Below are positions 10,584-48,570 of a stretch of 48,768 nt of DNA, piece by piece. Under the pieces are notes generated by a model. It had not been told where the DNA came from. It did no database searches and saw only the letters and a program-made list of their open reading frames with translations. Position 1 is the stretch's first letter. Each line of letters begins with the position of its first letter. This stretch comes from Parcubacteria bacterium C7867-005. Lineage in GTDB: Bacteria > Patescibacteriota > Minisyncoccia > Phycocordibacterales > Zambryskibacteraceae. The DNA lies in the NCBI GenBank assembly GCA_001189165.1, contig LFCO01000003.1:1-48768 (forward strand), in the 5' to 3' direction. The position numbers and the translations under genes are program-made.

Positions 10584-10616
10584 GAAAAAACGCTCCTTGC
10601 GGGGAGCGTTTTTTCG
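10584..10616 (-). terminator. Intrinsic terminator downstream of the small basic ORF
   Basis: aaaaaaCGCTCCttgcggGGAGCGtttttt: a GC stem flanked by A and T runs. It lies between the ORF stop (10630) and the secA promoter. Confidence 0.7.
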
Positions 10617-10924: not shown

Positions 10925-13108
10925 TTAGTTCAATGTTCCGTTTTGAATTCCTAGAATATATTCTTCTGCTTTATCTTTATATTCTGGAATTTCTTTTATC
11001 AAGTTATTTAGAACTTCCAAAGCCTTTGCCCTTTCTCCAGACCTCAAATATGCTCCGGCCAAATCTACATATCCTTGTGATGCTTTTGGATTTAGCTTAA
11101 CTCTTTCTGACAAAAAGCTTTGCAAAAGAGCGTACCTACCCGTATCAAGCAATACCCTTGCTATACGATCGTCCCCGGCGATTGTGGGCAAATTCAATGT
11201 TTGAAGCAATGTATTTATTAATGCACTATCGTTTGTGTAGAGTGCTCCAAGGAAATAGAAAATCTGCGCTTCGTTATATTTAGGGGCCATGTCGTATGCT
11301 TTTTTGAATAGCTTCATGGCCTCTGGATAATTTTTAGTTGAAAGCAGAGTGGTACCTTGTTCTAAGTACACAACTTGTTTAGATGGGATTAGTTTTTCTG
11401 CTTTTTTCAAATAAGCCAGTGCTTCATCTGGAAAGCCTGCTCTACTGAAAAACGAACCAGCAATAATCATATGTCTCGCGTCATTCTCTGATTTCTTTGT
11501 CTGCTCTTCTAAGACTTTTTTGGTGTAATTGAAATATTCTGTCTTAGCTTCAGCTGCAATTCCACTAGAGAAAACATTGGACCCAGATGTAGCCAGCCAC
11601 TCAACAGTTTCTGGTCTCCCCAATCTTGATCCTTCGTATGCATTTTTGAAGTAACCCAAGGCGTCAGTCTTTTTTGAATCATCGGCTTGAACAGATTGAA
11701 GTCCGTGGATAAGGTTGAGGTTGGCACTGATCGGTTTTATGTTAACGAAATAAAGCGTAATGACCAAGACAATAACTACTGGCAAAACTATGAGGTACGG
11801 AGCTCGTATAGGAATATCTTTTACGTTTAACTTATTTTCTTTCACACCAACAGTTCTACTATGAACATACCCTAGGAATGAGAAGAACAATATGTAGCTA
11901 ATGAGATGATCAAACACAAACAAGTTGTGGAAGAAGTACCCAGCAAGTAAACCCGTGAGAACAGAGCTTTCAGCAAAGGATAGATTCGTACCTTTCTTCC
12001 ATACAGAATAAAGCAACACGATATAAAGTGAGAGATAGCTGATCAGACCAAGCATTCCCCCAGCGATGCCCCAGTCTAGGAATATATTGTGGGCTCGATC
12101 AAACCATGGCTCCAAACGAAACATCGCCGGACTATAATTCTTACTAAAAACATCACTGAAATTTTCCTGACCCCAGCCAAAGAGTGGTTTTTCTTGAATA
12201 CCTTTTATAGCCATGGGCCAAACAAAAGATCTACCCTCGGTTTCTATCTGAGCGAGACTGATAGAAGCAAACCTACTCAGGACTTCACTCTCTCTAACGA
12301 AGGCTGTGTTGCGGGCCATATAAAAACTACCAACCAGGATAAAGAGTCCAATCAAAATACTGAAACTAAATTTCTTCATACCTTTTGATTCTCTGTTCCT
12401 TACATTCAGTAGAGCCACCAAAAGCACTCCTCCGATTAGACCCAGTATGCTACCTCTTGTTGCTGTGTGGTAAAGAATAAAAACCTGACAAAAAACCAAA
12501 CCACCGTATATCCATCGAAGATACGATTCACTGTTTTGCCTAACGAAAAACATAATAGCCATAAATATATGGAACAACATATAGACAGCCAGATATGCAG
12601 CATTACCAAAAGTACCATCAACACGGACCCCTCCCTGATTTATCTCCGCTACCCCCAAAAGCTGAGAAGTGCAGTAAAGAACCATTATAAAAGATGCTAC
12701 TAGAGATGTGTTCCACCAATAGTGCCAGTTCTCCTGTTTAAATATAGATGTTGTTACCAAAAAGAATGCGCCTAAGTGGAGAAGGGTCACAAAACCTTCC
12801 ATTCGCTCATAATTAGACCAGAAGCTCTTCGCAGGAGATTCCCCGAGAAGATTAGCTAACCCGATAATCACAAAAAATGCCAACAGCGCATAAACTATGG
12901 CAGATCTTTTTGGTCTGTACTCTGGTGCCATGACCACCAGGATCAACCATGAGGCAAAAACAATTTCTATGATAATCCTGAAGGCAAAAGCCTTGGTCGT
13001 TATAAATGGGAAAAACAAAGAACTAGAAACAAGGAAGGGTACGAATGGTACTAAAAACAAACCGCCCAAAGCTATCCACTTGAAAGTATCTTTATTCATA
13101 GGAATCAT
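10925..13108 (-). CDS. O-antigen ligase/polymerase-like (Wzy_C-type) membrane protein fused to C-terminal TPR repeats
   Basis: ORF track, 727 aa with many TM helices. Has the RAHNIFLDWGIAGGMLGL ligase-loop signature and a TPR-like C-terminus (YPEAMKLFKKAYDMAPKYNEA). The alternative start ATG 13099 fits the promoter spacing better. Confidence 0.8.
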   Translation of the reverse strand: MIPMNKDTFKWIALGGLFLVPFVPFLVSSSLFFPFITTKAFAFRIIIEIVFASWLILVVMAPEYRPKRSAIVYALLAFFVIIGLANLLGESPAKSFWSNYERMEGFVTLLHLGAFFLVTTSIFKQENWHYWWNTSLVASFIMVLYCTSQLLGVAEINQGGVRVDGTFGNAAYLAVYMLFHIFMAIMFFVRQNSESYLRWIYGGLVFCQVFILYHTATRGSILGLIGGVLLVALLNVRNRESKGMKKFSFSILIGLFILVGSFYMARNTAFVRESEVLSRFASISLAQIETEGRSFVWPMAIKGIQEKPLFGWGQENFSDVFSKNYSPAMFRLEPWFDRAHNIFLDWGIAGGMLGLISYLSLYIVLLYSVWKKGTNLSFAESSVLTGLLAGYFFHNLFVFDHLISYILFFSFLGYVHSRTVGVKENKLNVKDIPIRAPYLIVLPVVIVLVITLYFVNIKPISANLNLIHGLQSVQADDSKKTDALGYFKNAYEGSRLGRPETVEWLATSGSNVFSSGIAAEAKTEYFNYTKKVLEEQTKKSENDARHMIIAGSFFSRAGFPDEALAYLKKAEKLIPSKQVVYLEQGTTLLSTKNYPEAMKLFKKAYDMAPKYNEAQIFYFLGALYTNDSALINTLLQTLNLPTIAGDDRIARVLLDTGRYALLQSFLSERVKLNPKASQGYVDLAGAYLRSGERAKALEVLNNLIKEIPEYKDKAEEYILGIQNGTLN

Positions 13109-13115
13109 GTTAGCA
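13107..13115 (-). promoter_or_regulatory. Extended -10 TGcTAACAT, 7 nt upstream of ATG 13099
   Basis: Minus strand reads TGCTAACAT-gattcct-ATG. The first ATG (13108) lies inside the hexamer. Confidence 0.4.
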
Positions 13116-13153
13116 CTGAATCCAAGTGGCTAGCAATAAAATCTTTTATCTAC

Positions 13154-13159
13154 TAGTAT
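13154..13159 (+). promoter_or_regulatory. -10 box TAGTAT, 7 nt upstream of ATG 13167 (leaderless-type)
   Basis: Plus strand reads TAGTAT-caaagca-ATG. Confidence 0.45.
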
Positions 13160-13166
13160 CAAAGCA

Positions 13167-14444
13167 ATGCAAGCACTAAAACAGAAGGCACATAATGCCC
13201 TCCGCCGGAGTGAGGGGTTCTTTAAAACAGACATGGTCTACCTGGCTAAAGGCGGATTTTGGCTCACTTTAACTCAATTCGTGGGGACTCTCTCGGCCCT
13301 CATACTGTCTATAGCCTTCGCCCACCTATTTTCAAAGGATGCTTATGGAACATACAAATACATACTGGCCCTCTCGGGCATTATAGGAACCTTTACTCTG
13401 ACCGGCCTCGGATCAGCTGTCACTCAATCTGTGGCCAGGGGGTTCGATAGTTCATTAAAGAAAGCGTTTAAAACAATGCTCAAGTGGAGTACTCTTATCA
13501 CAGTCGCGGCATTGTCGGGGAGTATTTATTATTATTTTAATGACAACCTATTACTTTCAGCCTCCCTTATCATCATAGGAATTGCTTCTCCGATAATCGA
13601 CGCGACATCTCTGTTTGTATCCTATCTGTCTGGTAAAAAAGAATTTAAAACTCTATCAGTTCTAAACATGATAGGAATACTGTTCCCAAATATATGCTTA
13701 GTGATAAGTTTGTTTTTTACAAAAAACGTATTGATGATAGTTCTGGTTTATTTTGCTTCATATGTATTGGTGCTATCACTTTCATATCTTTATACCATCA
13801 CTCGCTTCAGGCCACAGAGTCAGGATGATCCAGAAATAGTCAGCTATGCCAAACACCTTACCCTCCTGGGAATACTCAATGCAGTCGCTGATCAAATAGA
13901 CAAGGTGTTGGTATTCCACTATGTAGGAGCGGTCGAGCTAGCCGTTTATTCTTTTGCTGTGGCTCTACCCCTACAAATAAAAGGGACCCTTAAGGGCATC
14001 GCGGTTTTAGCATTCCCCAAGTTTGCTGAGAGACCAATAGAGGGAATCATGAAAGATATAAAACAAAAGATGCTCAGGCTACTGTTCATAACCGTATGTA
14101 TAGTGACCGTATACATATTGGTTTCGCCGTATCTATATAAGCTACTCTTTCCACAATATCTAGAATCGGTAATTTATTCTCAGGTGTTCTCACTTTCGCT
14201 TCTTGGATTTATAAGTTCTTTCCCGTCAACTGTGCTACAGGCTAAAAAATATATAAAAGGGTTGTATTGGGCCAACATGCTTGTGGCGATAACAAAAATA
14301 GTACTTCTATTTGTCTTTGTATACATGTGGGGCGTCTGGGGAGTGGTCATCGCTAGAATAACTTATGAATACATAGCCACAGCAATAGTTTGGATTATCC
14401 TTTCTGCGGTAACCAAAAACGAGAAGATGTCACCCGTGGTTTAA
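13167..14444 (+). CDS. Polysaccharide/oligosaccharide flippase (Wzx-like, MOP superfamily)
   Basis: ORF track, 425 aa, with roughly 12 hydrophobic segments. The N-terminal region is typical of polysaccharide biosynthesis exporters, and the gene sits in glycan-locus context. Confidence 0.75.
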   Translation: MQALKQKAHNALRRSEGFFKTDMVYLAKGGFWLTLTQFVGTLSALILSIAFAHLFSKDAYGTYKYILALSGIIGTFTLTGLGSAVTQSVARGFDSSLKKAFKTMLKWSTLITVAALSGSIYYYFNDNLLLSASLIIIGIASPIIDATSLFVSYLSGKKEFKTLSVLNMIGILFPNICLVISLFFTKNVLMIVLVYFASYVLVLSLSYLYTITRFRPQSQDDPEIVSYAKHLTLLGILNAVADQIDKVLVFHYVGAVELAVYSFAVALPLQIKGTLKGIAVLAFPKFAERPIEGIMKDIKQKMLRLLFITVCIVTVYILVSPYLYKLLFPQYLESVIYSQVFSLSLLGFISSFPSTVLQAKKYIKGLYWANMLVAITKIVLLFVFVYMWGVWGVVIARITYEYIATAIVWIILSAVTKNEKMSPVV

Positions 14445-14446
14445 GA

Positions 14447-15313
14447 TCAAGATCGACACACTCGGGCTACAACCTTTATACCGTATCTCTCATCCATGAC
14501 GAACTGTTTATCGCCTGTCATGGTAACCACATCGAAACCAGCCGTTCCTAAAGTCTTTCTTATTGTCTCCGCATTAAAGTGAACCACATGATCAACATGT
14601 ATTGGCCCAATACCAAAATATTTATCCAAATCTGGAATTTCAAAAATAAGCAGAGATTCGGGAGACATATGTTTCTTTATGTCATGTAAAATTTTTAATG
14701 GATCCCTCACATGTTCAAGTACGTGCCACATTGTGATCACATCAAACTTATCGTTTGGATCCACCTCAGACAAACTGTTGTATATTTTTCTGAATTTTTT
14801 CTCTGTAAGATGCCTAAAGTTTTGACCAGGTTCTACAGCATATGTGGCCACATTAGGATAATTCTCTAACATCCCCAAAAGAAAAGAACCTTCTGAAGAA
14901 CCTATATCCAAAACAGATCGAACATCTTTGGAAATAGTTCTCTGACCCATGAGATGCTTAATGAAGTCCAGATGTTTATTGGCTCTTTCTGGTGCGCTGA
15001 ACTCTTTACGAACCCTGTCAGTAATAAAGATAATTCCCCAATCTAATCCTCTGAACATTTTTGATGAATAAAACTTGTTTAAAAAACTTTCTGTAGGCAT
15101 GGGCTGACTAAAAACGAAAGAGCATTGGGGGCACTTCACTGTGGTCACATTTAATCCGTACCGGTCTTTTCTATATAAAATCTCAAAATTTGTATTATTT
15201 TGACAAATCGGGCACGGCACCGTCTCCGTATCCATACTTAAAGCTACTAACCGCTTATAAAAACTCCTCACCAATCTTCTCTTAAATGATTTCAGATATT
15301 CAAATATCATCAT
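14447..15313 (-). CDS. Class I SAM-dependent methyltransferase with N-terminal zinc-ribbon
   Basis: ORF track, 288 aa. Has CPICQ...CPQC, then the SAM motif I VLDIGSSEGSF and an acidic post-I region. Confidence 0.75.
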   Translation of the reverse strand: MMIFEYLKSFKRRLVRSFYKRLVALSMDTETVPCPICQNNTNFEILYRKDRYGLNVTTVKCPQCSFVFSQPMPTESFLNKFYSSKMFRGLDWGIIFITDRVRKEFSAPERANKHLDFIKHLMGQRTISKDVRSVLDIGSSEGSFLLGMLENYPNVATYAVEPGQNFRHLTEKKFRKIYNSLSEVDPNDKFDVITMWHVLEHVRDPLKILHDIKKHMSPESLLIFEIPDLDKYFGIGPIHVDHVVHFNAETIRKTLGTAGFDVVTMTGDKQFVMDERYGIKVVARVCRS

Positions 15314-16788
15314 TGCTTAAATTTATCACAAATTACCTTAACCAAACTCTCTGTCATAATAAGTTCTGATTCAGAATCAATAAATTTAATCCGTCTTTTT
15401 CTTAACTCGGCATCTGATGTTTGACTGATCTTCAGCAAATCATCATGAAGGTTACCGTCTATAAAAATCATATCTGCCAAGCCATTAGCAACCATCCCCT
15501 CTCCATAATCAATAGAGGTTTCAATTATGGCAACCGGGCGGCCCTGCTCGACCATGTCATACAAAAAGGTTGAATATGTGCCAATCGCCAAGTCAATGTC
15601 ATCAAGCATGTCATCGGTAGTACGAGCTAACTTGATCTTGTCTATATATGGCAATAACCCGTATTCTGAAATTTGCTCCATTTTTTCTTGATCCTGCCTC
15701 AGCTTAAACACGACTTCAATATCATCATATGCAAAAATCTTTTTTATATATTGAAAAATTTCTTTTTTTGGAGCATTTTTTTCATAAGGGATTAACACAG
15801 AAATACGATTGCTACTTTTTTTTCTTGGTATAAATGATCTATTTTTTGTTCCTCCTCCAACAATTATCTGATCTGGGAAAAAATACGTCCCCAAGCGGAG
15901 TAGTTCTCCCTTCCAGTACTTACTCCAGACAAAAGTCTTATCGGGACAAATATTTCGACCTGGTAAGTCTGTCATTTTGAGCCAGCCGACATGATACTTT
16001 GTAAAATGTCCGTGCTGTATAGAATAAAAATCGACACCAGAAAGTTTAGAGGCGATTATAATCTCATTTATGGTGCGCACATCATCTATGGCTAATATCT
16101 GTTTTACTGAAGAAAAATACAACAACCCTCTTAAAAAAAGTATCCTGTAACGAGATATCGACACCGAACTCCCATATTTAATAAGAATAGTAAAAATCAG
16201 ATCCCTTTCCTCTTTTGTAAAAGCCGTCATGTCTAAACTCCTCAGATATCTACTTAGTTTAAATTTATTAAAAACGACATTAAAAGATGATAGGAAGTCT
16301 GGGCTTTCTAAATAAACCACTGGGCGTGCTCGATATAGGAGATTTTTCAACATTCCTCGACCGATAACGGTGTGAACTATTTCAAAATAACTTGAAGATG
16401 TTTTCTGCAGAGCCTCATATAATGGATCGAGTCTAAAATCATTCTTAAATTTACCTGTGGTTTTATCCAAAGTAAAAACCAATATTTCTGTTCTAGCCAA
16501 TACTAAATATATCCCTGAAATAATAGAGAGGAGGAAAGTGAAGATTGCCAAAATAGACATTTTTATCAAAACAATAAAACTTGCCTTGGGAATTATGGCG
16601 TCAATATCTTTTTTGTTAGACCAGCCCAAGATATCTCCAAATATAGGCTGTTGATATGCTTGCCATAAATTATAGCCCTTGCACAAAAACAACAAAGATA
16701 GCTTCGGATCAGATTCAACGAATTTATTTAATTTTTGAAGAATGGCTAAGGAATACTTGTAATCAAGATACCCGTCATTGTCTTTCAT
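15310..16788 (-). CDS. Membrane-anchored protein of unknown function (possible surface-carbohydrate biosynthesis protein)
   Basis: ORF track, 492 aa with one N-proximal TM (ILAIFTFLLSIISGIYLVL). No motif I can name. ATGA-overlapped with the downstream methyltransferase. Confidence 0.6.
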   Translation of the reverse strand: MKDNDGYLDYKYSLAILQKLNKFVESDPKLSLLFLCKGYNLWQAYQQPIFGDILGWSNKKDIDAIIPKASFIVLIKMSILAIFTFLLSIISGIYLVLARTEILVFTLDKTTGKFKNDFRLDPLYEALQKTSSSYFEIVHTVIGRGMLKNLLYRARPVVYLESPDFLSSFNVVFNKFKLSRYLRSLDMTAFTKEERDLIFTILIKYGSSVSISRYRILFLRGLLYFSSVKQILAIDDVRTINEIIIASKLSGVDFYSIQHGHFTKYHVGWLKMTDLPGRNICPDKTFVWSKYWKGELLRLGTYFFPDQIIVGGGTKNRSFIPRKKSSNRISVLIPYEKNAPKKEIFQYIKKIFAYDDIEVVFKLRQDQEKMEQISEYGLLPYIDKIKLARTTDDMLDDIDLAIGTYSTFLYDMVEQGRPVAIIETSIDYGEGMVANGLADMIFIDGNLHDDLLKISQTSDAELRKRRIKFIDSESELIMTESLVKVICDKFKQ

Positions 16789-16795
16789 TCACGAC

Positions 16796-16801
16796 ATTAT
16801 A
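16796..16801 (-). promoter_or_regulatory. -10 box TATAAT, 7 nt upstream of ATG 16788 (leaderless-type)
   Basis: Minus strand reads TATAAT-gtcgtga-ATG. Confidence 0.55.
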
Positions 16802-16847
16802 CCCCCATAGATAGCCATAACAAGCTTGTCTGTGTCTTGAGATTTTA

Positions 16848-16875
16848 TTGATAGTAATATTTTAAAGTGTATTAT
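16848..16875 (+). promoter_or_regulatory. Sigma70-like promoter TTGATA-N16-TATTAT reading into GC-rich cassette 1
   Basis: TTGATA at 16848-16853 and TATTAT at 16870-16875. The -10 coincides with the left copy of the 8-bp direct repeat. Confidence 0.45.
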
Positions 16876-16877
16876 CT
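16870..16877. repeat. Left copy of the 8-bp direct repeat TATTATCT flanking cassette 1
   Basis: An exact 8-mer also occurs at 17916-17923, immediately outside both composition boundaries. Confidence 0.5.
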
Positions 16878-16925
16878 ACTCGGAGTGCCCTTTGTAGCAA
16901 ACCAACGACCAACTGGAGAACCGAG

Positions 16926-17888
16926 ATGACCACGATCATGCAGCGAATCGACCGCACCGCGACGATTCCGATCTCTCACAGGGTGCCAACGCCCCCACCC
17001 CCGCAGTCCGTGAAGATCGAGGTTACTGGAGTGTGTAACCTCAGATGTGGTTTCTGCGCTCTTACCAAGCGCGATACCCAGCCCACGAAACCCATGTCCT
17101 GGGAGTTCCTGGAGAGGATGATCAGGGAGTGTAGGGAGTTCGGAATCAAGGAGATCGGATTCTTCTACATCGGCGAATCCTTCACTGCCATGGACATTCT
17201 TGTCCCCGGAATCAGGCTCGCCACCGAGCTAGGTTTTGAGGGCAGGTTCCTCACCTCGAATGCCACGGTAGCTACCCCAGACAGGGTCCGGCAAGTCATC
17301 GAAGCTGGGTTGACCTCATTGAAGTGGAGCGTCAACAACGATTCTCCGCATCAGTTCGCGGAAGTGACCGCGAGACCCGAGAGACTGTTCCATCTGGCCA
17401 TGGCCAACATCCGGCGGGCCAAGGAGGTCAGGGATGACGTCTTCGGTCGGACCGGCCATCGATGCGAGCTTTCGGCATCAAGGATCCGATACAACGATGA
17501 CCAGCATCTGAGGATGATCGAGTTCTTCAGAACTGAGGTCGAGCCATTCGTCGACCATGCCTACGAACTACCCCCGTACACGATGGGTGGATCCCCTATC
17601 GAGAGGGAGAGGGAGCTCGGAATCAATCCGACCGCAGGGAACCAGGGTCGGATCGGCGGTCTGGTGGCACCAATACCATGCTGGGCGGTTTTCACTGAGG
17701 CGCACATCACCTCATGTGGGATGCTCAGCGCATGTTGTTTCGATGCCAACGGTTCATGGACCATGGCAGACCTGAACGAGGTGTCGCTCGCAGATGGATG
17801 GCATAGCATCGCCTTCCAGAACCTGCGCAACGCACACCTCGAAGGTAACATCCGGGGTACCGCATGCGAGACGTGTGCTCTGTACTGA
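16926..17888 (+). CDS. Radical SAM enzyme with Cys-rich SPASM/twitch-like C-terminal domain
   Basis: ORF track, 320 aa. Has the CxxxCxxC cluster VTGVCNLRCGFCAL and the C-terminal cysteines CWAV...SCGMLSACCF...GTACETC. GGAG lies 7 nt upstream of the ATG. Codons are GC3-rich, unlike the neighbouring genes. Confidence 0.85.
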   Translation: MTTIMQRIDRTATIPISHRVPTPPPPQSVKIEVTGVCNLRCGFCALTKRDTQPTKPMSWEFLERMIRECREFGIKEIGFFYIGESFTAMDILVPGIRLATELGFEGRFLTSNATVATPDRVRQVIEAGLTSLKWSVNNDSPHQFAEVTARPERLFHLAMANIRRAKEVRDDVFGRTGHRCELSASRIRYNDDQHLRMIEFFRTEVEPFVDHAYELPPYTMGGSPIERERELGINPTAGNQGRIGGLVAPIPCWAVFTEAHITSCGMLSACCFDANGSWTMADLNEVSLADGWHSIAFQNLRNAHLEGNIRGTACETCALY

Positions 17889-17892
17889 TTCT

Positions 17893-17913
17893 AAACCGCC
17901 GACATGGCGGTTT
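17893..17913 (+). terminator. Hairpin terminator of cassette 1
   Basis: AAACCGCC-gacat-GGCGGTTT followed by cttatt, starting 5 nt after the TGA. Confidence 0.7.
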
Positions 17914-17915
17914 CT

Positions 17916-17923
17916 TATTATCT
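17916..17923. repeat. Right copy of the 8-bp direct repeat TATTATCT
   Basis: An exact match to 16870-16877. Confidence 0.5.
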
Positions 17924-17927
17924 TTAA

Positions 17928-17942
17928 TATCAAAATTTGATA
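17928..17942. promoter_or_regulatory. 15-nt palindrome TATCAAAaTTTGATA overlapping the promoter of the 17953 gene (possible operator)
   Basis: A perfect 7+7 inverted repeat that abuts or overlaps the TAATAT -10 box. Confidence 0.3.
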
Positions 17943-17946
17943 ATAT
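17941..17946 (+). promoter_or_regulatory. -10 box TAATAT, 6 nt upstream of ATG 17953 (leaderless-type)
   Basis: Plus strand reads TAATAT-aagtct-ATG. Confidence 0.5.
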
Positions 17947-17952
17947 AAGTCT

Positions 17953-18804
17953 ATGAAAAAAGTATTTATACATACGAATAATAAGCAGTTTGCAGGAGCG
18001 ATACTCGCCAAATACGCTATAGAAAGCAAGCTTCCCAAAGATTCTGATATAACTGTCGAGTTTATCAACGTCGATGAGATAGAGGCTTTCAAAAAATTTG
18101 CTGGCAAAGAATACATGTTCGCAGGCAAAACTCGTGTCTATAACCCAAAGGATCTCCAGTCCTTCACTCTCTCCAGGTTCATGCCACCACAACTCATGGG
18201 TTACGAAGGGACTGCTGTAGTGATCGACCCGGATATATTCGCGCTCAAAGACATCTCTCCATTGTTCAACATGGACATGACCAACAAAACACTGGCTGCA
18301 TGTAGCAAAAAAGACACGTGGGATACAAGCACCATGCTCATGGACTGTGAAAAGCTCAAGCATTGGAAAATAGAGGATATCTTAGATGGACTTGCGAACA
18401 AAAAACTTGATTATGTGTTCGACATCATGAGTCTAAAGCATGAACCCAGAGAATCTATCTTAGAACTACCGAGAATATGGAATAACTTGGACAAAATCAC
18501 CCCCGATACTTATATGGTCCACATGACCAATAGGATGACACAGCCATGGAAAACCGGCTTACCCATAGACTTCACCATAAACCCGATGCCAAAAATTTTT
18601 GGCATCATTCCTCGAGAGCCAATACACAAACTCCTCGGCAAGTATCCAACACATTACCAAAAACATCCTGACAAGAATATCGAAGGCTTTTTCTTAAACC
18701 TAGTCAAAGATGCCATCAAAAATGGTGCGATAACCAAAGAGACGATCAGCTCAGAAATAGCCAAGGGTCATGTGAGAAAGGACCTACTGTCTATTATTTC
18801 TTGA
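17953..18804 (+). CDS. Hypothetical protein (possible nucleotide-sugar transferase with a DxD-like VIDPDIF segment)
   Basis: ORF track, 283 aa. AT-rich native codon usage and glycan-locus context. The family assignment is uncertain. Confidence 0.55.
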   Translation: MKKVFIHTNNKQFAGAILAKYAIESKLPKDSDITVEFINVDEIEAFKKFAGKEYMFAGKTRVYNPKDLQSFTLSRFMPPQLMGYEGTAVVIDPDIFALKDISPLFNMDMTNKTLAACSKKDTWDTSTMLMDCEKLKHWKIEDILDGLANKKLDYVFDIMSLKHEPRESILELPRIWNNLDKITPDTYMVHMTNRMTQPWKTGLPIDFTINPMPKIFGIIPREPIHKLLGKYPTHYQKHPDKNIEGFFLNLVKDAIKNGAITKETISSEIAKGHVRKDLLSIIS

Positions 18805-34139: not shown

Positions 34140-35216
34140 CTACATAGTAGCCTTTCGAGAGGCTTTTTCAAGTAAGGAGATAACTGTATGAGCAACATTT
34201 TTGACATTGTGCTTTTGGCTCACTAGGTTAACCGAATTGGTTACATACTTTTCCTTATGTTCATCAGTCCAGCCCAAAACCCTCTCCACGCAAGATGACA
34301 GCATCAGAGCATCGTCCTCTTTAAAATACAGATCTGAAACAAAATCCTTTAGGTCATCTTTGTATACAGTTGTTGGCAAAATAGCTGGTACTCCGACTGC
34401 CATTGCCTCGAGTTCTGTTTTGCCAAAACCACCACCACCCTGGAGTCGAACAAATATCTGATGGTTCGCATATATCTTTGGAGCGTCCTTATTGGCAATG
34501 CCTCCCTTCCAAAAAACATTCTGTTCGACCTTTTTTTCTACAACTAATTTTTTTAAACTCATAAGATACTCATCATCCTCCAACCTTGCTGGTTTACCAT
34601 AAATATCCACAATTAAATTTTTTATATTTTTCTCATGAACAAGTATGCGAGTAGCTTCGATTAAAATCTCTATTCTTTTTACTTTCGAAATTCTAGAAAA
34701 AGACAAGAGACTTAGGGGTTTTGTGACCACATCAACCTGCGGTGAAAATAAATCTGTATTAATACCGTGTCCAGTAGAAATAACCTTATCCGAATCATAT
34801 TCAAAACTTTCTTTGGATGGTGTCAGAATAAAATCCACATGATCGATCGCCCATTTGGCCGCATTGCTCACTTTGATGTGTGCGTACCACATCACCACTG
34901 GTTTTTTTAGAAAGAAATTCACGGGATGAATAGCTCGAACATACTCTGGTGCCATGTGGACAAAAACTCCATCTGCCTTTATTAGAGAACCGAGAGAGTA
35001 AATAAAAAACTTTATGGCACGAATAAATTTGGAATTACTTTTCTCTTTGCCCAGAGACCTGACGCGAACATTTGCTGGCAGATCAAATTTACCCTTCGCA
35101 AGACAAATGACATCCACAAAATCTGCTTCAGCTGAAAGCGCCTTAACCCATCCTGAAAAGAATCCAAGGATGTCGTCTTCTTCATCTATCTTTTGAGTGA
35201 TGACGAGTATCCTCAT
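34140..35216 (-). CDS. GT4-family glycosyltransferase
   Basis: ORF track, 358 aa. GGGGFGKTELEAMAVGVPAI. Confidence 0.75.
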   Translation of the reverse strand: MRILVITQKIDEEDDILGFFSGWVKALSAEADFVDVICLAKGKFDLPANVRVRSLGKEKSNSKFIRAIKFFIYSLGSLIKADGVFVHMAPEYVRAIHPVNFFLKKPVVMWYAHIKVSNAAKWAIDHVDFILTPSKESFEYDSDKVISTGHGINTDLFSPQVDVVTKPLSLLSFSRISKVKRIEILIEATRILVHEKNIKNLIVDIYGKPARLEDDEYLMSLKKLVVEKKVEQNVFWKGGIANKDAPKIYANHQIFVRLQGGGGFGKTELEAMAVGVPAILPTTVYKDDLKDFVSDLYFKEDDALMLSSCVERVLGWTDEHKEKYVTNSVNLVSQKHNVKNVAHTVISLLEKASRKATM

Positions 35217-36367
35217 GATGGTATTTTCAGAGAAGTGCTGACCCAGGTAGATATAAGGCGCCTTAAGTACTCCTCTTTTGAAAAAACATTTGCCTCTATA
35301 AACTGGTTCGTATTAGAAGCAAAAGCCTTCCTTTTTTCTATATCAGCTACCAGGTCATAAACAGCCTTAAACATGTATTCTGGGTCATTTTGAGGGCAAA
35401 TATAAGCATTCAGGCCGTTAGACAGCTCTGTGGCTATACCCACTGGAGTAGTGACTATGGGTAGGCCAGATATGGCCGCTTCCACGAGGGATAGTCCGTA
35501 GCCCTCGAATTCTGAAGTCTGGATAAAGATATCTGCCGTTTTATAATATGAAGTCAGATCCTCTTGCCAGCCAACAAATATAACCGACGAAACAAGTCCT
35601 AGTTTTTTGACCAAAGATTTGAGCTTTGCCTCTTCTGGACCAGAACCCACAATAACCAAACCAGTATCTCCAGCAAATTCTTTGACCCGCCTTAGGACCT
35701 CTATGGATGCGGTGATGTTTTTTTCTGGTGATAATCTGGACACAGAAAGTAGTACAGTCTTGAAACCATACTCCCCGTGTAAATCCAATTTAACTTTGCC
35801 GGCAAGAATTCGGTCCTTGTCTACATAAATAGGCAAAACATTCACAACACCACTACTTTGATATTCCCTGACTACCTCATCTCCGATTTGTCTGCTGACT
35901 ACCCTGATTGATTCAGCGCTTTTTATTACCTTACGAGCAACTCTCTTCCTTATAGAGTTCAGAAAGCCACTGAAATACGGAGAAAAAAGATTAGTATGAA
36001 TCTGCACTTCTAAAGGAATGCGCCATTTGTTTTTTATTTTCAATCCTGCGATCCCACATTCAAACGGATCCTGTGTAGTGATCAACGACTTGCCGCGTAC
36101 AAACTTTTTGTCAAAAATTATTTTTTTTCCTATCCTCTCAGCATCATGCGATCTGAACCATTTGATAAACGAGTTTGTTGGATAAACCCAAATATTTTTT
36201 GAAAGCTCGGTATTCTTTAGATTATGAGAAGAATCAGACAGCAAGACTATGTGGAGTTCGGATACGAGTTCGCCGTATTCCTTCATCCGCTCTGAAACTG
36301 CACTACCGGGGGCAAGAATATTCCTGTCCGTGGAAATCATTAAAACCTTGATTTCTGATCGATCCAT
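35213..36367 (-). CDS. GT4-family glycosyltransferase
   Basis: ORF track, 384 aa. TSEFEGYGLSLVEAAISGLPIV. Confidence 0.8.
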   Translation of the reverse strand: MDRSEIKVLMISTDRNILAPGSAVSERMKEYGELVSELHIVLLSDSSHNLKNTELSKNIWVYPTNSFIKWFRSHDAERIGKKIIFDKKFVRGKSLITTQDPFECGIAGLKIKNKWRIPLEVQIHTNLFSPYFSGFLNSIRKRVARKVIKSAESIRVVSRQIGDEVVREYQSSGVVNVLPIYVDKDRILAGKVKLDLHGEYGFKTVLLSVSRLSPEKNITASIEVLRRVKEFAGDTGLVIVGSGPEEAKLKSLVKKLGLVSSVIFVGWQEDLTSYYKTADIFIQTSEFEGYGLSLVEAAISGLPIVTTPVGIATELSNGLNAYICPQNDPEYMFKAVYDLVADIEKRKAFASNTNQFIEANVFSKEEYLRRLISTWVSTSLKIPS

Positions 36368-36418: not shown

Positions 36419-37570
36419 ATGAAGATAGTCATAGCTACTCCGATCTACCCACCAGAGATAGGTGGGCCAGCCACTTATACCAAGGAACTCTGCGAAAGAT
36501 TACACAGTGAACACAGTATTACTGTAGTCGCCTACACAGATGTACAAGAAGCTTTTAGTGGGACAAAGCTGGTCGCAGTAAGTAAGAATAGGCCACTACC
36601 AATTAGATTAATAAAATATTTTATCGCTGTTTGGAAGGTGAGCGAGGGTGCAGATTTGATATATGTACAAAATGCCATGGCAGCTGGGTTGCCCGTGGCG
36701 TTGGTTTCTATCTTTAGAAAGATACCTTTTGTATTAAAATTTGTCGGAGACGAGGCGTGGGAGAGAGCTACCCAACATAAATTAACTGAAAAACGATTAG
36801 AGGAATTCTTATCATCACCTGAAGGTGGGCTAAAAATCAAACTAATGATGATGGTTCAGGGTTTTGTCCTAAGACGAGCAAAGAAAGTAACTACCCCATC
36901 TGTTTATCTCCTAGAGGAGTTGAAAAAAACTTATGGTGTATCCGAAATTCAGGCTGTAGTTAATTACAATGCGGCAGAAGATACAGAGGTTCTGCCCTTC
37001 GACGCACACAAAATCCCTCACCAGATAGCCACAACTGCAAGGCTAGTAGCTTGGAAAGGGATAGACGGTATGATGAGAGCCTTAAAAATAGTTCTAAGAA
37101 ATTTCCCTGACGCCACACTTGTAGTAGCTGGTGATGGTCCAGAAATGAAAAATCTAGAGGCTCTTCGTACAGAGCTTGGTTTAGAAAATTCAGTAACCTT
37201 GCTTGGTAAGATATCCAGAGCAGAAACATGGCAACTAAGAAAGAGATCTGAGGTATACGTATTAAATTCTACGTACGAAGGACTGCCACATACAGTACTC
37301 ACAAGCTTTGCTGCAGAAATACCCACTGTGGCTACAAATATCCCTGGTACAAACGAAGCTGTCTACCATGAAAAAACAGGTCTATTAGTAGAACCGGGGG
37401 ATGCAGAAGCTCTGGCTACAGCTATTGAAAGATATTTTAATAACCCTGAGTTCGGACAGAAAATGGCCAAGCAGGGGTTAACACTACTAAAGGAGAAATT
37501 TTCTTGGGAAGCACATATAAAAAACCTAAACGATATTTTTAAGTCTATTGTCTCTAAGCCAAGTAATTAG
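36419..37570 (+). CDS. GT4-family glycosyltransferase
   Basis: ORF track, 383 aa. NSTYEGLPHTVLTSFAAEIPTV. Confidence 0.8.
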   Translation: MKIVIATPIYPPEIGGPATYTKELCERLHSEHSITVVAYTDVQEAFSGTKLVAVSKNRPLPIRLIKYFIAVWKVSEGADLIYVQNAMAAGLPVALVSIFRKIPFVLKFVGDEAWERATQHKLTEKRLEEFLSSPEGGLKIKLMMMVQGFVLRRAKKVTTPSVYLLEELKKTYGVSEIQAVVNYNAAEDTEVLPFDAHKIPHQIATTARLVAWKGIDGMMRALKIVLRNFPDATLVVAGDGPEMKNLEALRTELGLENSVTLLGKISRAETWQLRKRSEVYVLNSTYEGLPHTVLTSFAAEIPTVATNIPGTNEAVYHEKTGLLVEPGDAEALATAIERYFNNPEFGQKMAKQGLTLLKEKFSWEAHIKNLNDIFKSIVSKPSN

Positions 37571-41074: not shown

Positions 41075-41707
41075 TCACCAGAAGATGTTGTCGGCGATCT
41101 CTGTCCCGCCGCTCGTGATACCCTTCTTCGAGCCACCTTCCGTCGTAGCAACCTCCTCCTCCGTCAAGAGGTGCAAGGTCGCATGAAGGCTCATCTTGAA
41201 GAGAACGAGTTGTGGTGCCTCGATGTCGAAGAAGTGGAAGAGACGCCTGGTGGACATGCCTTCCTTCTCGCGGGCCGAGGTACCTCCGCCCGCCTTCTGC
41301 TCGAGTGTCTTCACGAAGCGGAACGTGATCCCGCTCGCTTCCTCGGCGGTGAGGATGGGGCCGAAGCTGAGGATCTTCTCCCGCACGAACTCCTCCATGA
41401 TCTCCCGCGCCGGATCGATCTCGAAGAAGTCTGGATCACGCCGAGAGAAGATCTCGAAGATCGTCTCGAGGTGCGAGTCGTCGACGACGAACCGAGCATC
41501 CATCCCTTCGAAGTCATGCGCCTCGAAATTGTTCTCGAGGTACTCCTTGCCCAACTGCGTGAGCTCGGCTGCGCCACCGAGAGCTCCGATCCTCTTGTGT
41601 CCCTTACGGAATGAAGCCGAGTTGAGGACACCGAAGAACCGAACTGCGCCAGTCTCCTTGACGATGAGACGAGGGGCAAGGTTGCCGATCGAGATGCGAA
41701 TGAGCAC
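41075..41707 (-). CDS. Orphan 210-aa protein of unknown function, high-GC codon usage
   Basis: ORF track, GTG start with GGAGGG 3 nt upstream. GC3-rich codons (ctc, atc, ttc, gag). It is the only frame with a sensible composition; the overlapping ORFs on both strands look like GC-content artefacts. Confidence 0.7.
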   Translation of the reverse strand: MLIRISIGNLAPRLIVKETGAVRFFGVLNSASFRKGHKRIGALGGAAELTQLGKEYLENNFEAHDFEGMDARFVVDDSHLETIFEIFSRRDPDFFEIDPAREIMEEFVREKILSFGPILTAEEASGITFRFVKTLEQKAGGGTSAREKEGMSTRRLFHFFDIEAPQLVLFKMSLHATLHLLTEEEVATTEGGSKKGITSGGTEIADNIFW

Positions 41708-41807: not shown

Positions 41808-42962
41808 CTACAAAAGACCATCAAATACAAGGGTTTTGAGGTAGCGGGCGACGAGGTCCCATTCGTACTTTTCTCTTACTAACCTCCGACCATTTTCTAT
41901 AAGGGAATCCCTGAGCTCTTTATTCTTTATTAATCTTTTTACCTGAATAACAATACTTTCTGGATTCTCTGTTTTAACGAAAAGCCCGGTTGGTTTTTTA
42001 TCTTTATTTTTATCAGGATCGAAAACAAAATCGACGATACCACCAACTGGGGTAGCTATAACCGGCAAGCCCGCTGCCATAGCTTCGATGAACGAATTAC
42101 CAAACCCCTCAGAAAGAGACGGGCGGATAAATATGTCTGATGCATGCAAATATAGAGGCACATCTTCATAAGACATGTGGCCCAAAAACATCACACGAGC
42201 TTCAAGATTTAAATTTTTAGTTAACAGTTTTAGACTATTCTCTAGTGGACCAGTACCGATGATTAACAATTTTATATTCCCGGGCAGATCAACCAAAGAT
42301 TGGATGATGTCCTTCACCCCATTCTTCTTGACCAACCTCGAGGTGGTGATCAGATATATATCTCCCTCTTTTTTATCCATACGTTCTAGCAAGCTCTGGA
42401 GCCTCGATGGATCAGATATCCGAGAGAAAACAGCAGTCTCTACCCCATTAGGAATCACCTCTACCCTGCCCTTATAACCCATTGATACAGCAAAGTTTGC
42501 GAGGAATAAAGAAATAGTCTGTATAACATCAGCCTTCAAAAATATCCTCCTGAAAAGTGGGTACACGAACCTCGCCTTTGATTTAATTTCTTCTAAAGGA
42601 ATCCCCTCCTGAAGAGTAAGCACGTAAGGAACTTTAGGGAAAGAGTATTTGAAGAACAAGCTGGCAAATCCCGCATGCGCTGCCATGATGGACCAAATCA
42701 TGTTGTAAGATTTTTCCAGGTGCAGCTTTTTACCAAAGAGATACGCTTTGATAGGAAACAGTATCTTGGGGGTATCAATCCTGTAGACGGTTACATTGTT
42801 TATCTTTTCTACATCTTTGTGCTCCTTAGAGAACTTTTTTGTCACCATATCAAACTCTATATCAGTCATGCGACTGGTCAGTTCCCTGACTGCAACCTCT
42901 GCTCCGCCAACAATAGGTTCGTATGCGAGTGAAAATATGAGTACTCGTTTCATTTTATTCAT
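41808..42962 (-). CDS. GT4-family glycosyltransferase
   Basis: ORF track, 384 aa. PSLSEGFGNSFIEAMAAGLPVI. Confidence 0.8.
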   Translation of the reverse strand: MNKMKRVLIFSLAYEPIVGGAEVAVRELTSRMTDIEFDMVTKKFSKEHKDVEKINNVTVYRIDTPKILFPIKAYLFGKKLHLEKSYNMIWSIMAAHAGFASLFFKYSFPKVPYVLTLQEGIPLEEIKSKARFVYPLFRRIFLKADVIQTISLFLANFAVSMGYKGRVEVIPNGVETAVFSRISDPSRLQSLLERMDKKEGDIYLITTSRLVKKNGVKDIIQSLVDLPGNIKLLIIGTGPLENSLKLLTKNLNLEARVMFLGHMSYEDVPLYLHASDIFIRPSLSEGFGNSFIEAMAAGLPVIATPVGGIVDFVFDPDKNKDKKPTGLFVKTENPESIVIQVKRLIKNKELRDSLIENGRRLVREKYEWDLVARYLKTLVFDGLL

Positions 42963-44640
42963 CTACCCCTAAGAGTGCTTTGAGTTCGGTCTCAGGGATT
43001 TCGTTAGTTTGTTTTTTGGGTTCACTTTTTAATTCAACAGATTTTTCCAGGTTGGGCCTTGGGGCAACGTGCGGTTTATTGGAGACAGGTTCTGACTTGA
43101 TCATGCTCGAGAGGATATTTTTCAAATCTGAAACATGCTTAGGACTAGGGTTTCTCTGATTATTACTTTTTTGTTTCAAACTATCCAAGGAAATAGCTTT
43201 CAGTGGTTTAAAATCATCTGTCGGCTCTTCTCTCTTGATCACCTCTTTCTGAACCTGCCTCTCTTCTTTCTTCTCCACTCTTTCTTCTCTGTACTCAGGT
43301 TTTTTACCACGAAAATCTATAGCTTTTAGAGCTTTTGGATTTGCTCTACCATCTTCTTGCCAGTCTGAAATTTCTTTTTCGATCATCGCCCTTGGACGAG
43401 CAAAAGTTTTCCTTGAATACTCGATGATTTCATCCATTAGAGACGTTTCCTGTTTCTTGATCGGAGGCAAAGTAGTGGCTGAAAAAGGTTGAGAACTAAC
43501 CCCATCTATCATGAGCTTCAAATATACTTGTGCGAATCCGAGATTTACCAAATCCTCTGCAGTAAAGGTTGGGGAAAATTCTTTCTCTAGTATCTCGGCG
43601 TCATAGGCACCGACACGAAAGACAATCATGGTACCGACGTTTCCAAACACCGCGGCCCTAACTTCTTCTGACATCTGCTCTATGTACTGATGAGCGATAG
43701 TGAGGTTTAGTTTATATTTACGGGCTTCAGAGAGAATATCTGCAAAAGATTCGTTGGCAAAAGATTGAAATTCGTCTACGTATAGATAGAAGTTTGGAAG
43801 CTTTTGTAGATTAGCCTCTGATTTGTCTGCACGACTCATGGCTGCCAAATAAATCTTGGTGATGAGCATCGAACCGAGCAGGTTTGCATTCGCTTCACCC
43901 ACACGACCCTTGGACAGGTTTATGATGAGGATCTTGCCTTCATCCATGATCTCTCGGATATCAAAGCTCGACTTCGACTGTCCTATGATATTTCGAATCA
44001 AAGGATTAGAAGTGAACTGACCAATCTTGTTTTGTATGGCTGGGATAGCTTCTGCAGCAAATCTTTCTGTATATCCGGCGAACTCTTGCGTCCAGTAAGT
44101 TTTCACAGATGAATCAGTGACGTTGGCCACGACCTTATCTCTATACACCTTATCTACAAGCATTTTGTTGATGCCGAGCATCGTAGCACCTGGATATTCA
44201 AGTAAAGCGAGGATCGTGTTCTGCAAGATGTACTGCATACGGTCAGAAAAGCTCTCTTCTCCAAAAAGTTTCTTGAAGGCGCTCATTAGCCCGTTAGCCA
44301 CGAGGTGGCGTTTATCAGGGCCAACATCTTCCATCACATTAAAGGATATCGGATGTTCTATATCAAATGGCGCAAAATAAACCACATCTTGCTTCCTATG
44401 CTCTGGTACATATTCAAGCAGCAAATCAGCCGTTTTGCCGTGTGGGTCAACAAAAGCTATGCCCTCACCACTCTGGATGTCTTGCACTGCCATATTCTCA
44501 AGCAGGGTCGACTTACCCATGCCTGTTTTCCCTATAACATAAACATGTTTTAACCTGTCTTTGGATTTGATACCAAAAGCCACGCGCTTGTTGCGAGAAT
44601 CAGTTTCAGCAAAGTACGTGATCTTGTCCGGATCGATCAT
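42955..44640 (-). CDS. Type IV secretion coupling-protein-like (TraD/VirD4/DUF87-type) P-loop ATPase without an N-terminal TM anchor, with a K/E-rich C-terminal tail
   Basis: ORF track, 561 aa. Walker A is IGKTGMGKST, then FVDPHGKTAD, Walker B FYLYVDEFQSF and LTIAHQYIEQM. The last ~130 aa are low-complexity and charged. Confidence 0.7.
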   Translation of the reverse strand: MIDPDKITYFAETDSRNKRVAFGIKSKDRLKHVYVIGKTGMGKSTLLENMAVQDIQSGEGIAFVDPHGKTADLLLEYVPEHRKQDVVYFAPFDIEHPISFNVMEDVGPDKRHLVANGLMSAFKKLFGEESFSDRMQYILQNTILALLEYPGATMLGINKMLVDKVYRDKVVANVTDSSVKTYWTQEFAGYTERFAAEAIPAIQNKIGQFTSNPLIRNIIGQSKSSFDIREIMDEGKILIINLSKGRVGEANANLLGSMLITKIYLAAMSRADKSEANLQKLPNFYLYVDEFQSFANESFADILSEARKYKLNLTIAHQYIEQMSEEVRAAVFGNVGTMIVFRVGAYDAEILEKEFSPTFTAEDLVNLGFAQVYLKLMIDGVSSQPFSATTLPPIKKQETSLMDEIIEYSRKTFARPRAMIEKEISDWQEDGRANPKALKAIDFRGKKPEYREERVEKKEERQVQKEVIKREEPTDDFKPLKAISLDSLKQKSNNQRNPSPKHVSDLKNILSSMIKSEPVSNKPHVAPRPNLEKSVELKSEPKKQTNEIPETELKALLGVDE

Positions 44641-44734: not shown

Positions 44735-45034
44735 ATGCTACACACAGAAAGAAGGCCCGGCCACAACGAGTGGCTTGGCCTGAAGGGGGCACTCCAGAGC
44801 TGTGGTGCCACTGTCGAACTCGAGATGTTAAAGATCATCGAACTCGACGGGCATATCTCCACCTGTCGTCATCCGCACATCCGGCGGGAGCATGTCCTGA
44901 ATGCCAACCGGTTGTTCGAGGAACTCCATCACGGTTGGCGTATCCTGGATGAGCGTGGCCAACCGTGGCCGACTGAGGAAGATGAGCTCTACATCTTTCC
45001 CACGAATCACCCGCGGACATCCACGACCGCCTGA
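44735..45034 (+). CDS. Orphan 99-aa protein of unknown function, high-GC codon usage
   Basis: ORF track. Preceded by an SD-like GAGAGGA and followed at once by a hairpin terminator. The antisense ORFs in the same segment look like GC artefacts. Confidence 0.55.
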   Translation: MLHTERRPGHNEWLGLKGALQSCGATVELEMLKIIELDGHISTCRHPHIRREHVLNANRLFEELHHGWRILDERGQPWPTEEDELYIFPTNHPRTSTTA

Positions 45035-46237: not shown

Positions 46238-46482
46238 AGGCTTGGATTAGAGTTCGACTGATTTTTAATCTCTTGCTCTATTGAAGCCCGCTTTCTGGCT
46301 TGCCTCTTTTGCACACGCGCCTTCAAAGACAACCTTCTGTCTATGGATATCATGACCGACAAGAGAACGATGGAGAGACCAAAGACAACCTCAAAAAAAG
46401 ATTCCCAAGAATTAGGAAAGCCGAGGACTGGTAGAAGTGCTATGAGGAATCCAAGAGTAAGAATTATTTTACTTTTAGGCAT
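46234..46482 (-). CDS. Small membrane protein (two TM helices, basic C-terminus)
   Basis: ORF track, 82 aa. Has a leaderless-type promoter and forms an ATGA-type overlap with the downstream gene. Confidence 0.55.
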   Translation of the reverse strand: MPKSKIILTLGFLIALLPVLGFPNSWESFFEVVFGLSIVLLSVMISIDRRLSLKARVQKRQARKRASIEQEIKNQSNSNPSL

Positions 46483-46489
46483 GCCTCGT

Positions 46490-46495
46490 ATTATA
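46490..46495 (-). promoter_or_regulatory. -10 box TATAAT, 7 nt upstream of ATG 46482 (leaderless-type)
   Basis: Minus strand reads TATAAT-acgaggc-ATG. Confidence 0.55.
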
Positions 46496-46530
46496 TACTC
46501 TTTGAATATCTTCTAAAAGTTTTTCTATTT

Positions 46531-46618
46531 CCACATCCCTCTCCTCCGCGTCTCCCCCTGTGTCAACCTGGCAGGTTGACACAGGGAGATCAAACGGGGC
46601 GGGAGGGGGTTCAGGGTG
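46531..46618 (-). other. Short GC-rich structured element with a perfect 13-bp hairpin (core 46556-46586), immediately 3' of tRNA-Ile
   Basis: CCCTGTGTCAACC-tggca-GGTTGACACAGGG, flanked by C-rich and G-rich arms that can extend the pairing imperfectly. No U-tract follows on either strand. Confidence 0.5.
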
Positions 46619-46691
46619 TGCGCGTGCCAGGGGTCGAACCTGGGACCTACCGAGTATCAGTCGATTGCTCTACCAGCTGAGCTACACGCGC
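46619..46691 (-). tRNA. tRNA-Ile (anticodon GAU), CCA not encoded
   Basis: Manual cloverleaf, 73 nt: acceptor GCGCGUG/CACGCGC, D arm GCUC-AGCUGGUA-GAGC, anticodon arm AUCGA-CUGAUAC-UCGGU, variable AGGUC, T arm CCAGG-UUCGACC-CCUGG, discriminator A. Confidence 0.9.
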
Positions 46692-46875: not shown

Positions 46876-46877
46876 GT

Positions 46878-47052: not shown

Positions 47053-48570
<1,518 letters not shown>

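Follow-up and report, generated by a model that had tools for sequence, protein, structure and literature searches.

A GC-rich radical SAM gene in a cell-surface glycan module of Patescibacteria

We analysed a 48,768-nt stretch of contig LFCO01000003.1 from Parcubacteria bacterium C7867-005 (hereafter the window), an AT-rich sequence (~41% GC) from a genome of the Patescibacteria, or Candidate Phyla Radiation (CPR), in which cell-surface glycan genes predominate. These comprise genes for an O-antigen-ligase/TPR protein, a Wzx-like flippase, several methyltransferases, a sugar C-methyltransferase (C-MT), two GDP-mannose-dehydratase-like proteins, glycosyltransferases (GT) of the GT1, GT2, GT8 and GT9 types and an asparagine-synthase-like protein; the window also holds SecA, GatB, a 16S rRNA gene and a tRNA-Ile gene. 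Among them lies one conspicuously GC-rich gene for a radical S-adenosylmethionine (SAM) enzyme, termed rSAM here, which is flanked by a gene for a 492-residue protein (U492) and by one for a GT8-like transferase. An earlier note on this DNA had read the gene as a single-gene cassette that was recently inserted and duplicated its target site. Our comparisons suggest that rSAM is a regular part of a glycan module, and that the copy in the window probably came in by exchange from another Patescibacterium.

A GC-rich transcription unit

The composition of the rSAM block differs sharply from that of its surroundings. A three-segment change-point fit places the block at 16879–17910, with GC contents of 0.333 to the left, 0.575 inside and 0.402 to the right, in good agreement with the switches that the earlier note had put at about 16878 and 17915; its hand counts of 35 G+C in 16926–16985 and 21 in 16801–16860 are exact. 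With a mean of 0.412 ± 0.035 for the window, a 963-nt segment at GC 0.575 stands 4.7 standard deviations higher, and in tetranucleotide usage the block is among the two spots of the window that deviate most. Within the reading frame, the GC content at third codon positions (GC3) is higher than in the other genes (median 0.41), and the shift toward C- and G-ending codons spans all degeneracy classes. The arginine share of arginine plus lysine, R/(R+K), is likewise extreme, compared with 0.57–0.77 in other copies of the gene and mostly 0.2–0.45 in the neighbouring genes.

The signals around the reading frame (Table 1) indicate that 16848–17913 is a complete, autonomous transcription unit, with a predicted promoter, a ~45-nt leader bearing GGAG, the coding sequence and a hairpin terminator. 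The promoter proposed in the earlier note, whose -10 box lies within the left copy of the edge repeat, is supported and is kept in L001, the locus of the nearest relative with the gene, as TTGAGA-N17-(TG)TATTAT (labels of this kind denote the compared loci, and the window itself is WIN). The GGAG that the note had placed 7 nt before the ATG is also there, in a leader that appears unstructured (fold z = +0.96), and the GC hairpin described there folds at -12.9 kcal/mol (z = -4.0). Together, these results uphold the description of the block as foreign-looking in composition and self-contained in transcription.

Table 1 Features of the rSAM unit and its immediate neighbours in the window
Feature	Position	Strand	Description
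U492 gene	15310..16788	-	492 aa, no Pfam family; conserved module partner, divergent from rSAM
U492 promoter-like site	16796..16823	-	TTGTTA-N16-TATAAT, 10/12 matches; GGGGTATAATGTCGTGA-ATG
rSAM promoter	16848..16875	+	TTGATA-N16-(TG)TATTAT; joint-best promoter-like match within 20 kb
Left TATTATCT copy	16870..16877	+	-10 box plus 2 nt, no duplication scar
rSAM 5' leader	16879..16925	+	GC-rich; GGAG at 16915-16918, 7 nt before ATG; left composition boundary at 16879
Radical SAM gene (rSAM)	16926..17888	+	320 aa, GC 0.575, GC3 0.71, R/(R+K) 0.82
Intrinsic terminator	17893..17913	+	hairpin AAACCGCC-GACAT-GGCGGTTT, then T-rich tail; right composition boundary ~17910
Right TATTATCT copy	17916..17923	+	within T-rich tail of terminator; aligned L001 position is TTATGTTT
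GT8 promoter region	17925..17952	+	extended -10 TG-aTAATAT, ends ~6 nt before GT8 ATG; homologous in L001
GT8-like glycosyltransferase gene	17953..18804	+	283 aa; PF01501 at 1.9e-8; GC3 0.49, near-native

The glycan module and its radical SAM enzyme

The nearest homologues of rSAM all belong to Patescibacteria, at 83, 71, 70, 68 and 66% identity and then as a group at 53–56%, while non-CPR bacterial homologues reach 50% or less. In eight Patescibacteria lineages rSAM lies in the same slot, beside GT8, U492 and a KdsD/KpsF-like sugar-phosphate isomerase (SIS/CBS), the loci with the module being L001/L016/L066, L017/L067/L068, L006–8, L009, L146 and L147. Specifically, the order in L001 and L017 is U492(-), SIS/CBS(-), rSAM(+), GT8(+), and the window has the same order minus SIS/CBS. 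At least five other lineages likewise have rSAM followed by GT8. The neighbour that varies least is GT8, which directly adjoins rSAM in L001, L006, L017, L146 and L147 and in L009 lies one gene away, and U492 adjoins rSAM, SIS/CBS or GT8 genes in L001, L006, L009 and L017. The note had portrayed the radical SAM gene as an intruder in a glycan locus and had named closest homologues from the gene's own lineage as evidence against insertion; such homologues, in the same slot, are what we found. Judged from this gene order, rSAM is a regular component of a predicted cell-surface glycan module of Patescibacteria and not an intruder.

The CxxxCxxC motif of the radical SAM superfamily binds the SAM-cleaving [4Fe-4S] cluster on a partial TIM-barrel core. 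A full SPASM domain carries the seven-Cys motif CX9-15GX4C ... CX2CX5CX3C ... C and two auxiliary [4Fe-4S] clusters, while twitch, a truncated SPASM, has about four Cys and a single auxiliary cluster. The 320-residue product of rSAM matches both Pfam families Radical_SAM (PF04055; 4.4e-11, 43.7 bits against a cut-off of 29.5) and SPASM (PF13186; 3.6e-8, 34 bits against 21.5), and the CxxxCxxC cluster seen in the earlier note, VCNLRCGFC, corresponds to C37, C41 and C44, which are invariant in 50 homologues. Toward the C-terminus the same homologues conserve five Cys (C252, C270, C271, C314 and C317), and the CX2CX5CX3C block is not present there. Since only these five are conserved, we regard the C-terminus as twitch-like; thus the Cys-rich, SPASM/twitch-like region of the earlier description holds for twitch and fails for a full seven-Cys SPASM. 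No NCBIfam model reaches its cut-off for the protein, all matches being far below it; N_Twi_rSAM matches residues 252–317 at 4e-8, under its whole-protein cut-off. The AF2 model is confident (predicted local distance difference test score 88.5, predicted template modelling score 0.89) and shows alternating beta/alpha elements. Foldseek returned only generic matches for it at template modelling (TM) scores of 0.5–0.6, to SuiB, BlsE, MoaA, DesII, BtrN and viperin, the nearest of which are radical SAM enzymes of the twitch/SPASM and sugar-modifying kinds (SuiB, BlsE, MoaA, DesII and BtrN). These data indicate a predicted SAM cluster plus one auxiliary cluster, and rSAM is, as far as its sequence tells, an uncharacterised twitch-type radical SAM enzyme.

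The best sequence match in the PDB is BtrN (4M7T), a twitch radical SAM enzyme that acts as 2-deoxy-scyllo-inosamine dehydrogenase. The two share the CxxxCxxC core and a C-terminal twitch with one auxiliary [4Fe-4S] cluster, their alignment covers C252, C271 and the CxxC at 314/317 (twitch, residues 250–317), BtrN is among the top structural matches as well, and its substrate is a carbohydrate-like small molecule, not a peptide. However, the two are only marginally similar (E = 3e-5, TM ~0.5–0.66, with 13% of residues identical when the structures are aligned), BtrN has 250 residues compared with 320 in the window, and it belongs to an aminoglycoside pathway. The top Foldseek matches, BlsE (7VOB) and DesII (8HZV), at TM ~0.6, modify nucleotide-linked sugars destined for glycosyl transfer, and this likeness fits rSAM because its gene adjoins glycosyltransferases, although the sequence identity is 14–18% and rSAM has no family-specific match to a hidden Markov model. 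On this analogy, the [4Fe-4S]-SAM cluster at C37/C41/C44 would generate a 5'-deoxyadenosyl radical, which would take a hydrogen from a sugar or a sugar-phosphate or nucleotide precursor; the single C-terminal auxiliary cluster may accept the electron in a BtrN/DesII-like oxidation, or the reaction may be an epimerisation or rearrangement, and the neighbouring transferases would then use the product. Our best guess is that a sugar precursor undergoes a radical oxidation that needs no oxygen, or some related transformation; the idea of a sugar dehydrogenase draws on the glycan-module context and on distant fold similarity only. A literature search returned nothing usable on a characterised twitch radical SAM enzyme from a sugar locus. 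In L147 the rSAM-GT8 pair lies beside genes for PfkB, transaldolase/FSA, a cytidylyltransferase-like protein, a HAD phosphatase and GT9, surroundings that look like a heptose-type pathway, and the Elusimicrobia copy adjoins an FAD oxidoreductase gene in a glycan locus.

The partner U492 has neither a Pfam nor an NCBIfam match in the window protein. Its 140 homologues, of which those with a named source are all from Patescibacteria, share a conserved IQHGH...W motif; none has a matching Pfam family, one member reaching PF04464 at 6e-5 as a weak TagF/Glyphos_transf signal, and a profile search of the PDB gave noise only. The -10 box of its gene (16796–16801) stops 7 nt short of the ATG, so that the U492 transcript may be leaderless, and this promoter-like site is homologous to the promoter of SIS/CBS in L001 (GGGGTATAATGTCGCTA-ATG). 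The GT8 transcript may be leaderless too, because its extended -10 ends so close to the start codon (Table 1). A 10-1-10 palindrome, TAATATCAAA-T-TTTGATAATA at 17925–17945, overlaps the GT8 -10 region and is a candidate operator.

History of the rSAM gene

To place the composition of rSAM in context, we compared its orthologues. In all eight sampled CPR loci the GC3 of rSAM is the highest or joint-highest of its neighbourhood, with an offset of +0.14 to +0.30, and it tracks that of the host (rSAM GC3 ~ 1.09 x host GC3 + 0.15, r = 0.88 over the CPR loci); non-CPR orthologues match their host composition. Additionally, a purine-rich motif of Shine-Dalgarno (SD) type lies upstream of 8/8 CPR orthologues, with the core GGAG in 5/8, and a hairpin terminator occurs at the same position in every one of them, while most neighbouring genes have neither. 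The anomaly is two-layered: ~+0.15 to +0.24 of GC3 is family-wide and host-tracking, and ~+0.11 is specific to the window genome, which is the largest outlier from the trend (residual +0.11, ~2.6 standard deviations). About two-thirds of the offset is thus common to all orthologues. The earlier note had taken the composition as a sign of a recent event; since all eight copies are GC-enriched and carry the purine-rich leader and the terminator, most of the signal does not date such an event in the window genome. A shared relic that has failed to ameliorate is also unlikely, because the synonymous sites between rSAM copies are saturated (third-position identity 0.33–0.47). Apart from rSAM, the glycan locus of L001 holds an unrelated Radical_SAM gene of 405 aa at 13795–15012 (+), with GC3 0.57 compared with ~0.38, R/(R+K) 0.66 and GGAGG upstream.

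The trees of rSAM and its flanking genes are in conflict. We used four-point tests instead of raw pairwise identity because L001 is a long branch for GT8 and U492. In the quartet of WIN, L001, L006 and L009, bootstraps join the window with L001 for rSAM (499/500) and with L006 for GT8 (500/500) and U492 (476/500). When L017 replaces L006, rSAM again joins L001 (500/500), and the window joins L017 for GT8 (358/500, a weaker result) and U492 (470/500). Sliding identity along the genes shows that the discordance is uniform over rSAM and absent over GT8 and U492, with no recombination breakpoint inside either of the latter two, so the exchanged unit approximates one gene.

Among the syntenic relatives that we found, L149 stands closest; compared with L006 it is the sister of the window, with identities to the window of 71 vs 65% for SecA, 86 vs 79% for C-MT, 77 vs 67% for GT9 and 58 vs 52% for U492 (L149 vs L006). 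In L149, U492 and GT8 lie ~52 nt apart, and neither rSAM nor SIS/CBS is found within 21 kb. An occupied slot is the ancestral state, because it is occupied in the more distant relatives L006, L017, L001 and L009. Beside U492, L149 carries at 11501–13630 (+) a gene for a 709-aa fusion of GFO_IDH_MocA and 2-hydroxyacid-dehydrogenase domains, which might take the place of the radical SAM step in an NAD-dependent way.

The marks of lateral transfer are all present in rSAM, namely atypical composition, tree conflict with the flanking genes, and presence/absence at the site in a close relative. In the history that we favour, the ancestral slot between U492 and GT8 would have held SIS/CBS and rSAM; the window lineage would then have lost SIS/CBS and had its rSAM replaced, or would have lost both, as in L149, and re-acquired rSAM. 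The present copy would be a xenologue whose source was a Patescibacterium of higher GC content and akin to the L001 lineage, brought in by recombinational gene replacement in a rearrangement-prone slot that retains no target-site duplication or mobility gene. The window is favoured as the recipient because of its extra GC, its extreme R/K ratio and its affinity to L001; the direction of transfer, like the chemistry and the substrate, is something we infer. To the explanation as a whole, which combines an autonomous unit, a module component, the proposed chemistry, a two-layered GC anomaly and a replacement history, we assign a probability of about 0.55.

Several observations weigh against this explanation. 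The quartet tests are distance-based and cover a small sample of six taxa. The gene may instead have been received by L001, with the window copy being native; among third positions polarised with outgroups the window has 20 AT>GC and 11 GC>AT changes and L001 has 4 and 15, at sites that are saturated and with 147 unpolarisable, and of the polarised amino-acid differences 42/56 are ambiguous. No donor occurs among the sampled genomes, and because the closest rSAM homologue is only 83% identical in protein (74.5% in nucleotides), how recent the exchange was cannot be put into numbers. The constant, host-tracking offset in all copies suggests that much of the anomaly is intrinsic to the gene. As for function, the orthologues that Beta- and Alphaproteobacteria have at 42–50% identity (L010, L011, L014, L038–L064) stand alone in unrelated contexts, where FNR/Crp, Usp, NMO and cbb3 oxidase genes and, mostly within one genus, a MoCF_biosynth gene recur as neighbours. 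No conserved operon appears among the neighbours of these orthologues outside Patescibacteria, and the contexts suggest a role linked to anaerobiosis, with which a glycan-specific role does not obviously agree.

The strongest alternative is vertical descent with an intrinsic GC bias. It holds that rSAM of the window descends in place and that L001 received a window-like copy, that the GC richness reflects a gene-specific equilibrium set by codon or mRNA selection or by biased repair, and that L149 deleted SIS/CBS and rSAM while the window deleted SIS/CBS only. The positive offset of all eight copies (slope ~1.1, intercept +0.15), the saturation that makes an un-ameliorated relic unlikely, the conserved slot, promoter, leader and terminator, and the GC richness of the unrelated Radical_SAM gene in L001 all agree with it, as does the 66% identity between the rSAM copies of the window and L006, which falls inside the flanking-gene range of 41–79%. 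However, 66% is low for so conserved a protein when C-MT reaches 79%, the GC3 of the window copy lies +0.11 above the family trend, its R/K ratio is more extreme than that of any other homologue, and we know of no mechanism that keeps one protein-coding gene 10–17 GC points above its genome. We consider descent in place unlikely, if well worth keeping in mind. Another reading, quite improbable in our estimate, takes the GC richness and the SD-bearing leader not for relics of transfer but for features peculiar to the rSAM unit that are maintained across Patescibacteria; in its favour, rSAM keeps a 40–50-nt leader with a GGAG-type motif while its neighbours look leaderless and the 16S rRNA of the window has no CCUCC.

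The insertion proposed in the earlier note, of a mobile cassette into an AT-rich promoter region with duplication of TATTATCT, has in its favour that exact 8-bp direct repeats do lie within a few nucleotides of both composition boundaries and that L149 presents an empty site. The repeat, present as described, loses its significance on inspection: TATTATCT occurs 9 times in the window, shuffles give P = 0.14 for an 8-bp word common to both intergenic regions, and 18/55 pairs of intergenic regions in the window have a common word of at least 8 nt. Its left copy belongs to an extended -10, TGTATTATC (TG-TATTAT-C), of a promoter homologous in L001, where TTGAGA-N17-TGTATTATC precedes a leader of similar form, CAACCAAC...GGAG. 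Beyond the edges of the supposed cassette, both flanks are homologous to those of L001 (z = 4.8 upstream and 6.4 downstream, with 0/1000 shuffles as high). With TATTATCC at the left edge and TTATGTTT at the right, L001 has the gene without the repeat, a finding that the note itself had named as telling against insertion. The note had also called for an empty site with a single TATTATCT; the ~52-nt spacer of L149 lacks TATTATCT and shows no detectable homology to the flanks in the window. We found no terminal inverted repeats bracketing the block, no transposase, integrase or recombinase among the Pfam-annotated genes from 8 to 46 kb, no rSAM match in the phage collection and only matches of 20–26% identity, and thus no close homologue, in the plasmid collection. 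Insertion sequences, transposons and integron cassettes resemble the block in being single-gene units with short direct repeats at their edges, but they differ in that its repeat is at chance level, that it shows no inverted repeats, transposase, integrase or attC-like site and, as regards integron cassettes, that it has its own promoter. A cassette insertion with target-site duplication is largely refuted and, to our minds, very improbable. An assembly or binning artefact, in which a GC-rich foreign fragment was joined into an AT-rich contig, would suit the abrupt composition switch and the evidently metagenomic source. A second, separately made assembly argues against a chimera because it reproduces both junctions identically (Logan, SRR2043728, a 46.6-kb contig in which 6,963 nt spanning them are 100% identical); the gene was found on four contigs in the assembly search, the order of rSAM and GT8 recurs in other lineages, and promoter and terminator run seamlessly into flanks homologous in L001. 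An artefact is therefore barely credible.

Host signals and wider meaning

The translation signals of the host set the rSAM leader apart. In the 16S rRNA gene of the window (47053–48570, -), the 3' end at 47053–47075 has the tail GGAGUAAUUCAAUU, compared with the consensus GGAUCACCUCCUUU; the CCUCC anti-SD core is missing, and no CACCTCCT occurs near that end. The native genes of the window mostly have no SD motif, a pattern shared with L001, L004, L006 and L009, and many have a TATAAT-like box 6–10 nt before the ATG, for example U492 (16796–16801), GT8 (17941–17946) and the genes at 35213–36367 and 36419–37570, which suggests that leaderless mRNAs may be widespread in this genome. A literature search gave nothing usable on loss of the anti-SD or on leaderless genes in CPR. 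The earlier remark that native genes rarely have either signal is right for SD motifs, but GC hairpins are not absent elsewhere, with another terminator at 10584–10615 and a hairpin at 46851–46873 in the spacer between the 16S rRNA and tRNA-Ile genes. The latter folds at -18 kcal/mol and has an AACCGCC/GGCGGTT stem as in the rSAM terminator; this common stem pattern is expected 0.00 times by chance, and a similar stem occurs in the rSAM terminator of L146. In the region 46234–48570, the 16S rRNA gene is followed by tRNA-Ile(GAT) at 46618–46691 and then directly by protein-coding genes, with no tRNA-Ala or 23S rRNA gene following, so the rRNA genes appear to be unlinked.

Two other GC islands occur in the window. 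The single gene at 41075–41707 (-) encodes 210 aa with GC 0.588, GC3 0.79 and GGAGG before a GTG start; its family is very rare, 5.8 billion proteins yielding 12 homologues, and shows a weak, sub-threshold match to SMODS-associated NUDIX (PF18167). The 99-aa reading frame at 44735–45034 (+) has GC3 0.68, R/(R+K) 0.82, an SD-like GAGG/AGGA and no Pfam match, and it adjoins a homologue of TraG/VirD4-like coupling proteins at 42955–44640 (-).

Single-gene xenologous replacements and islets in loci of the O-antigen and capsule type offer the nearest parallel to the replacement of rSAM, sharing with it an atypical single gene, an incongruent tree and presence/absence polymorphism among relatives. 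The case differs from them in that every rSAM orthologue in Patescibacteria is GC-shifted, that the window copy has an SD-like leader despite a host 16S rRNA with no anti-SD, and that no mobility element or repeat flanks it. The event is thus of an ordinary kind, with an odd family-wide compositional signature, and current understanding is not overturned. As a caution for sequence reading, a sharp GC island with repeats at its edges is insufficient to call an insertion; the repeat here consists of a -10 box and a terminator tail. The comparison defines a conserved, uncharacterised glycan module of four genes, encoding the TagF-like U492, the SIS/CBS isomerase, the twitch radical SAM enzyme and the GT8-like transferase, and shows its slot to be prone to rearrangement through gene gain, loss and replacement. 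Solving the chemistry of rSAM would add a further reaction to those by which radical SAM enzymes modify sugars. One gene lying 10–17 GC points above the genome in every sampled lineage is a testable oddity. Were the GC richness and the leader indeed a maintained property, they would imply an unrecognised mechanism of selection or mutation, such as codon-throttled expression of an Fe-S enzyme or leader use independent of the anti-SD, or alternatively a continuous one-way supply from GC-richer organisms such as the hosts of these episymbionts, or a pattern that reaches other radical SAM genes, as the unrelated one in L001 illustrates.

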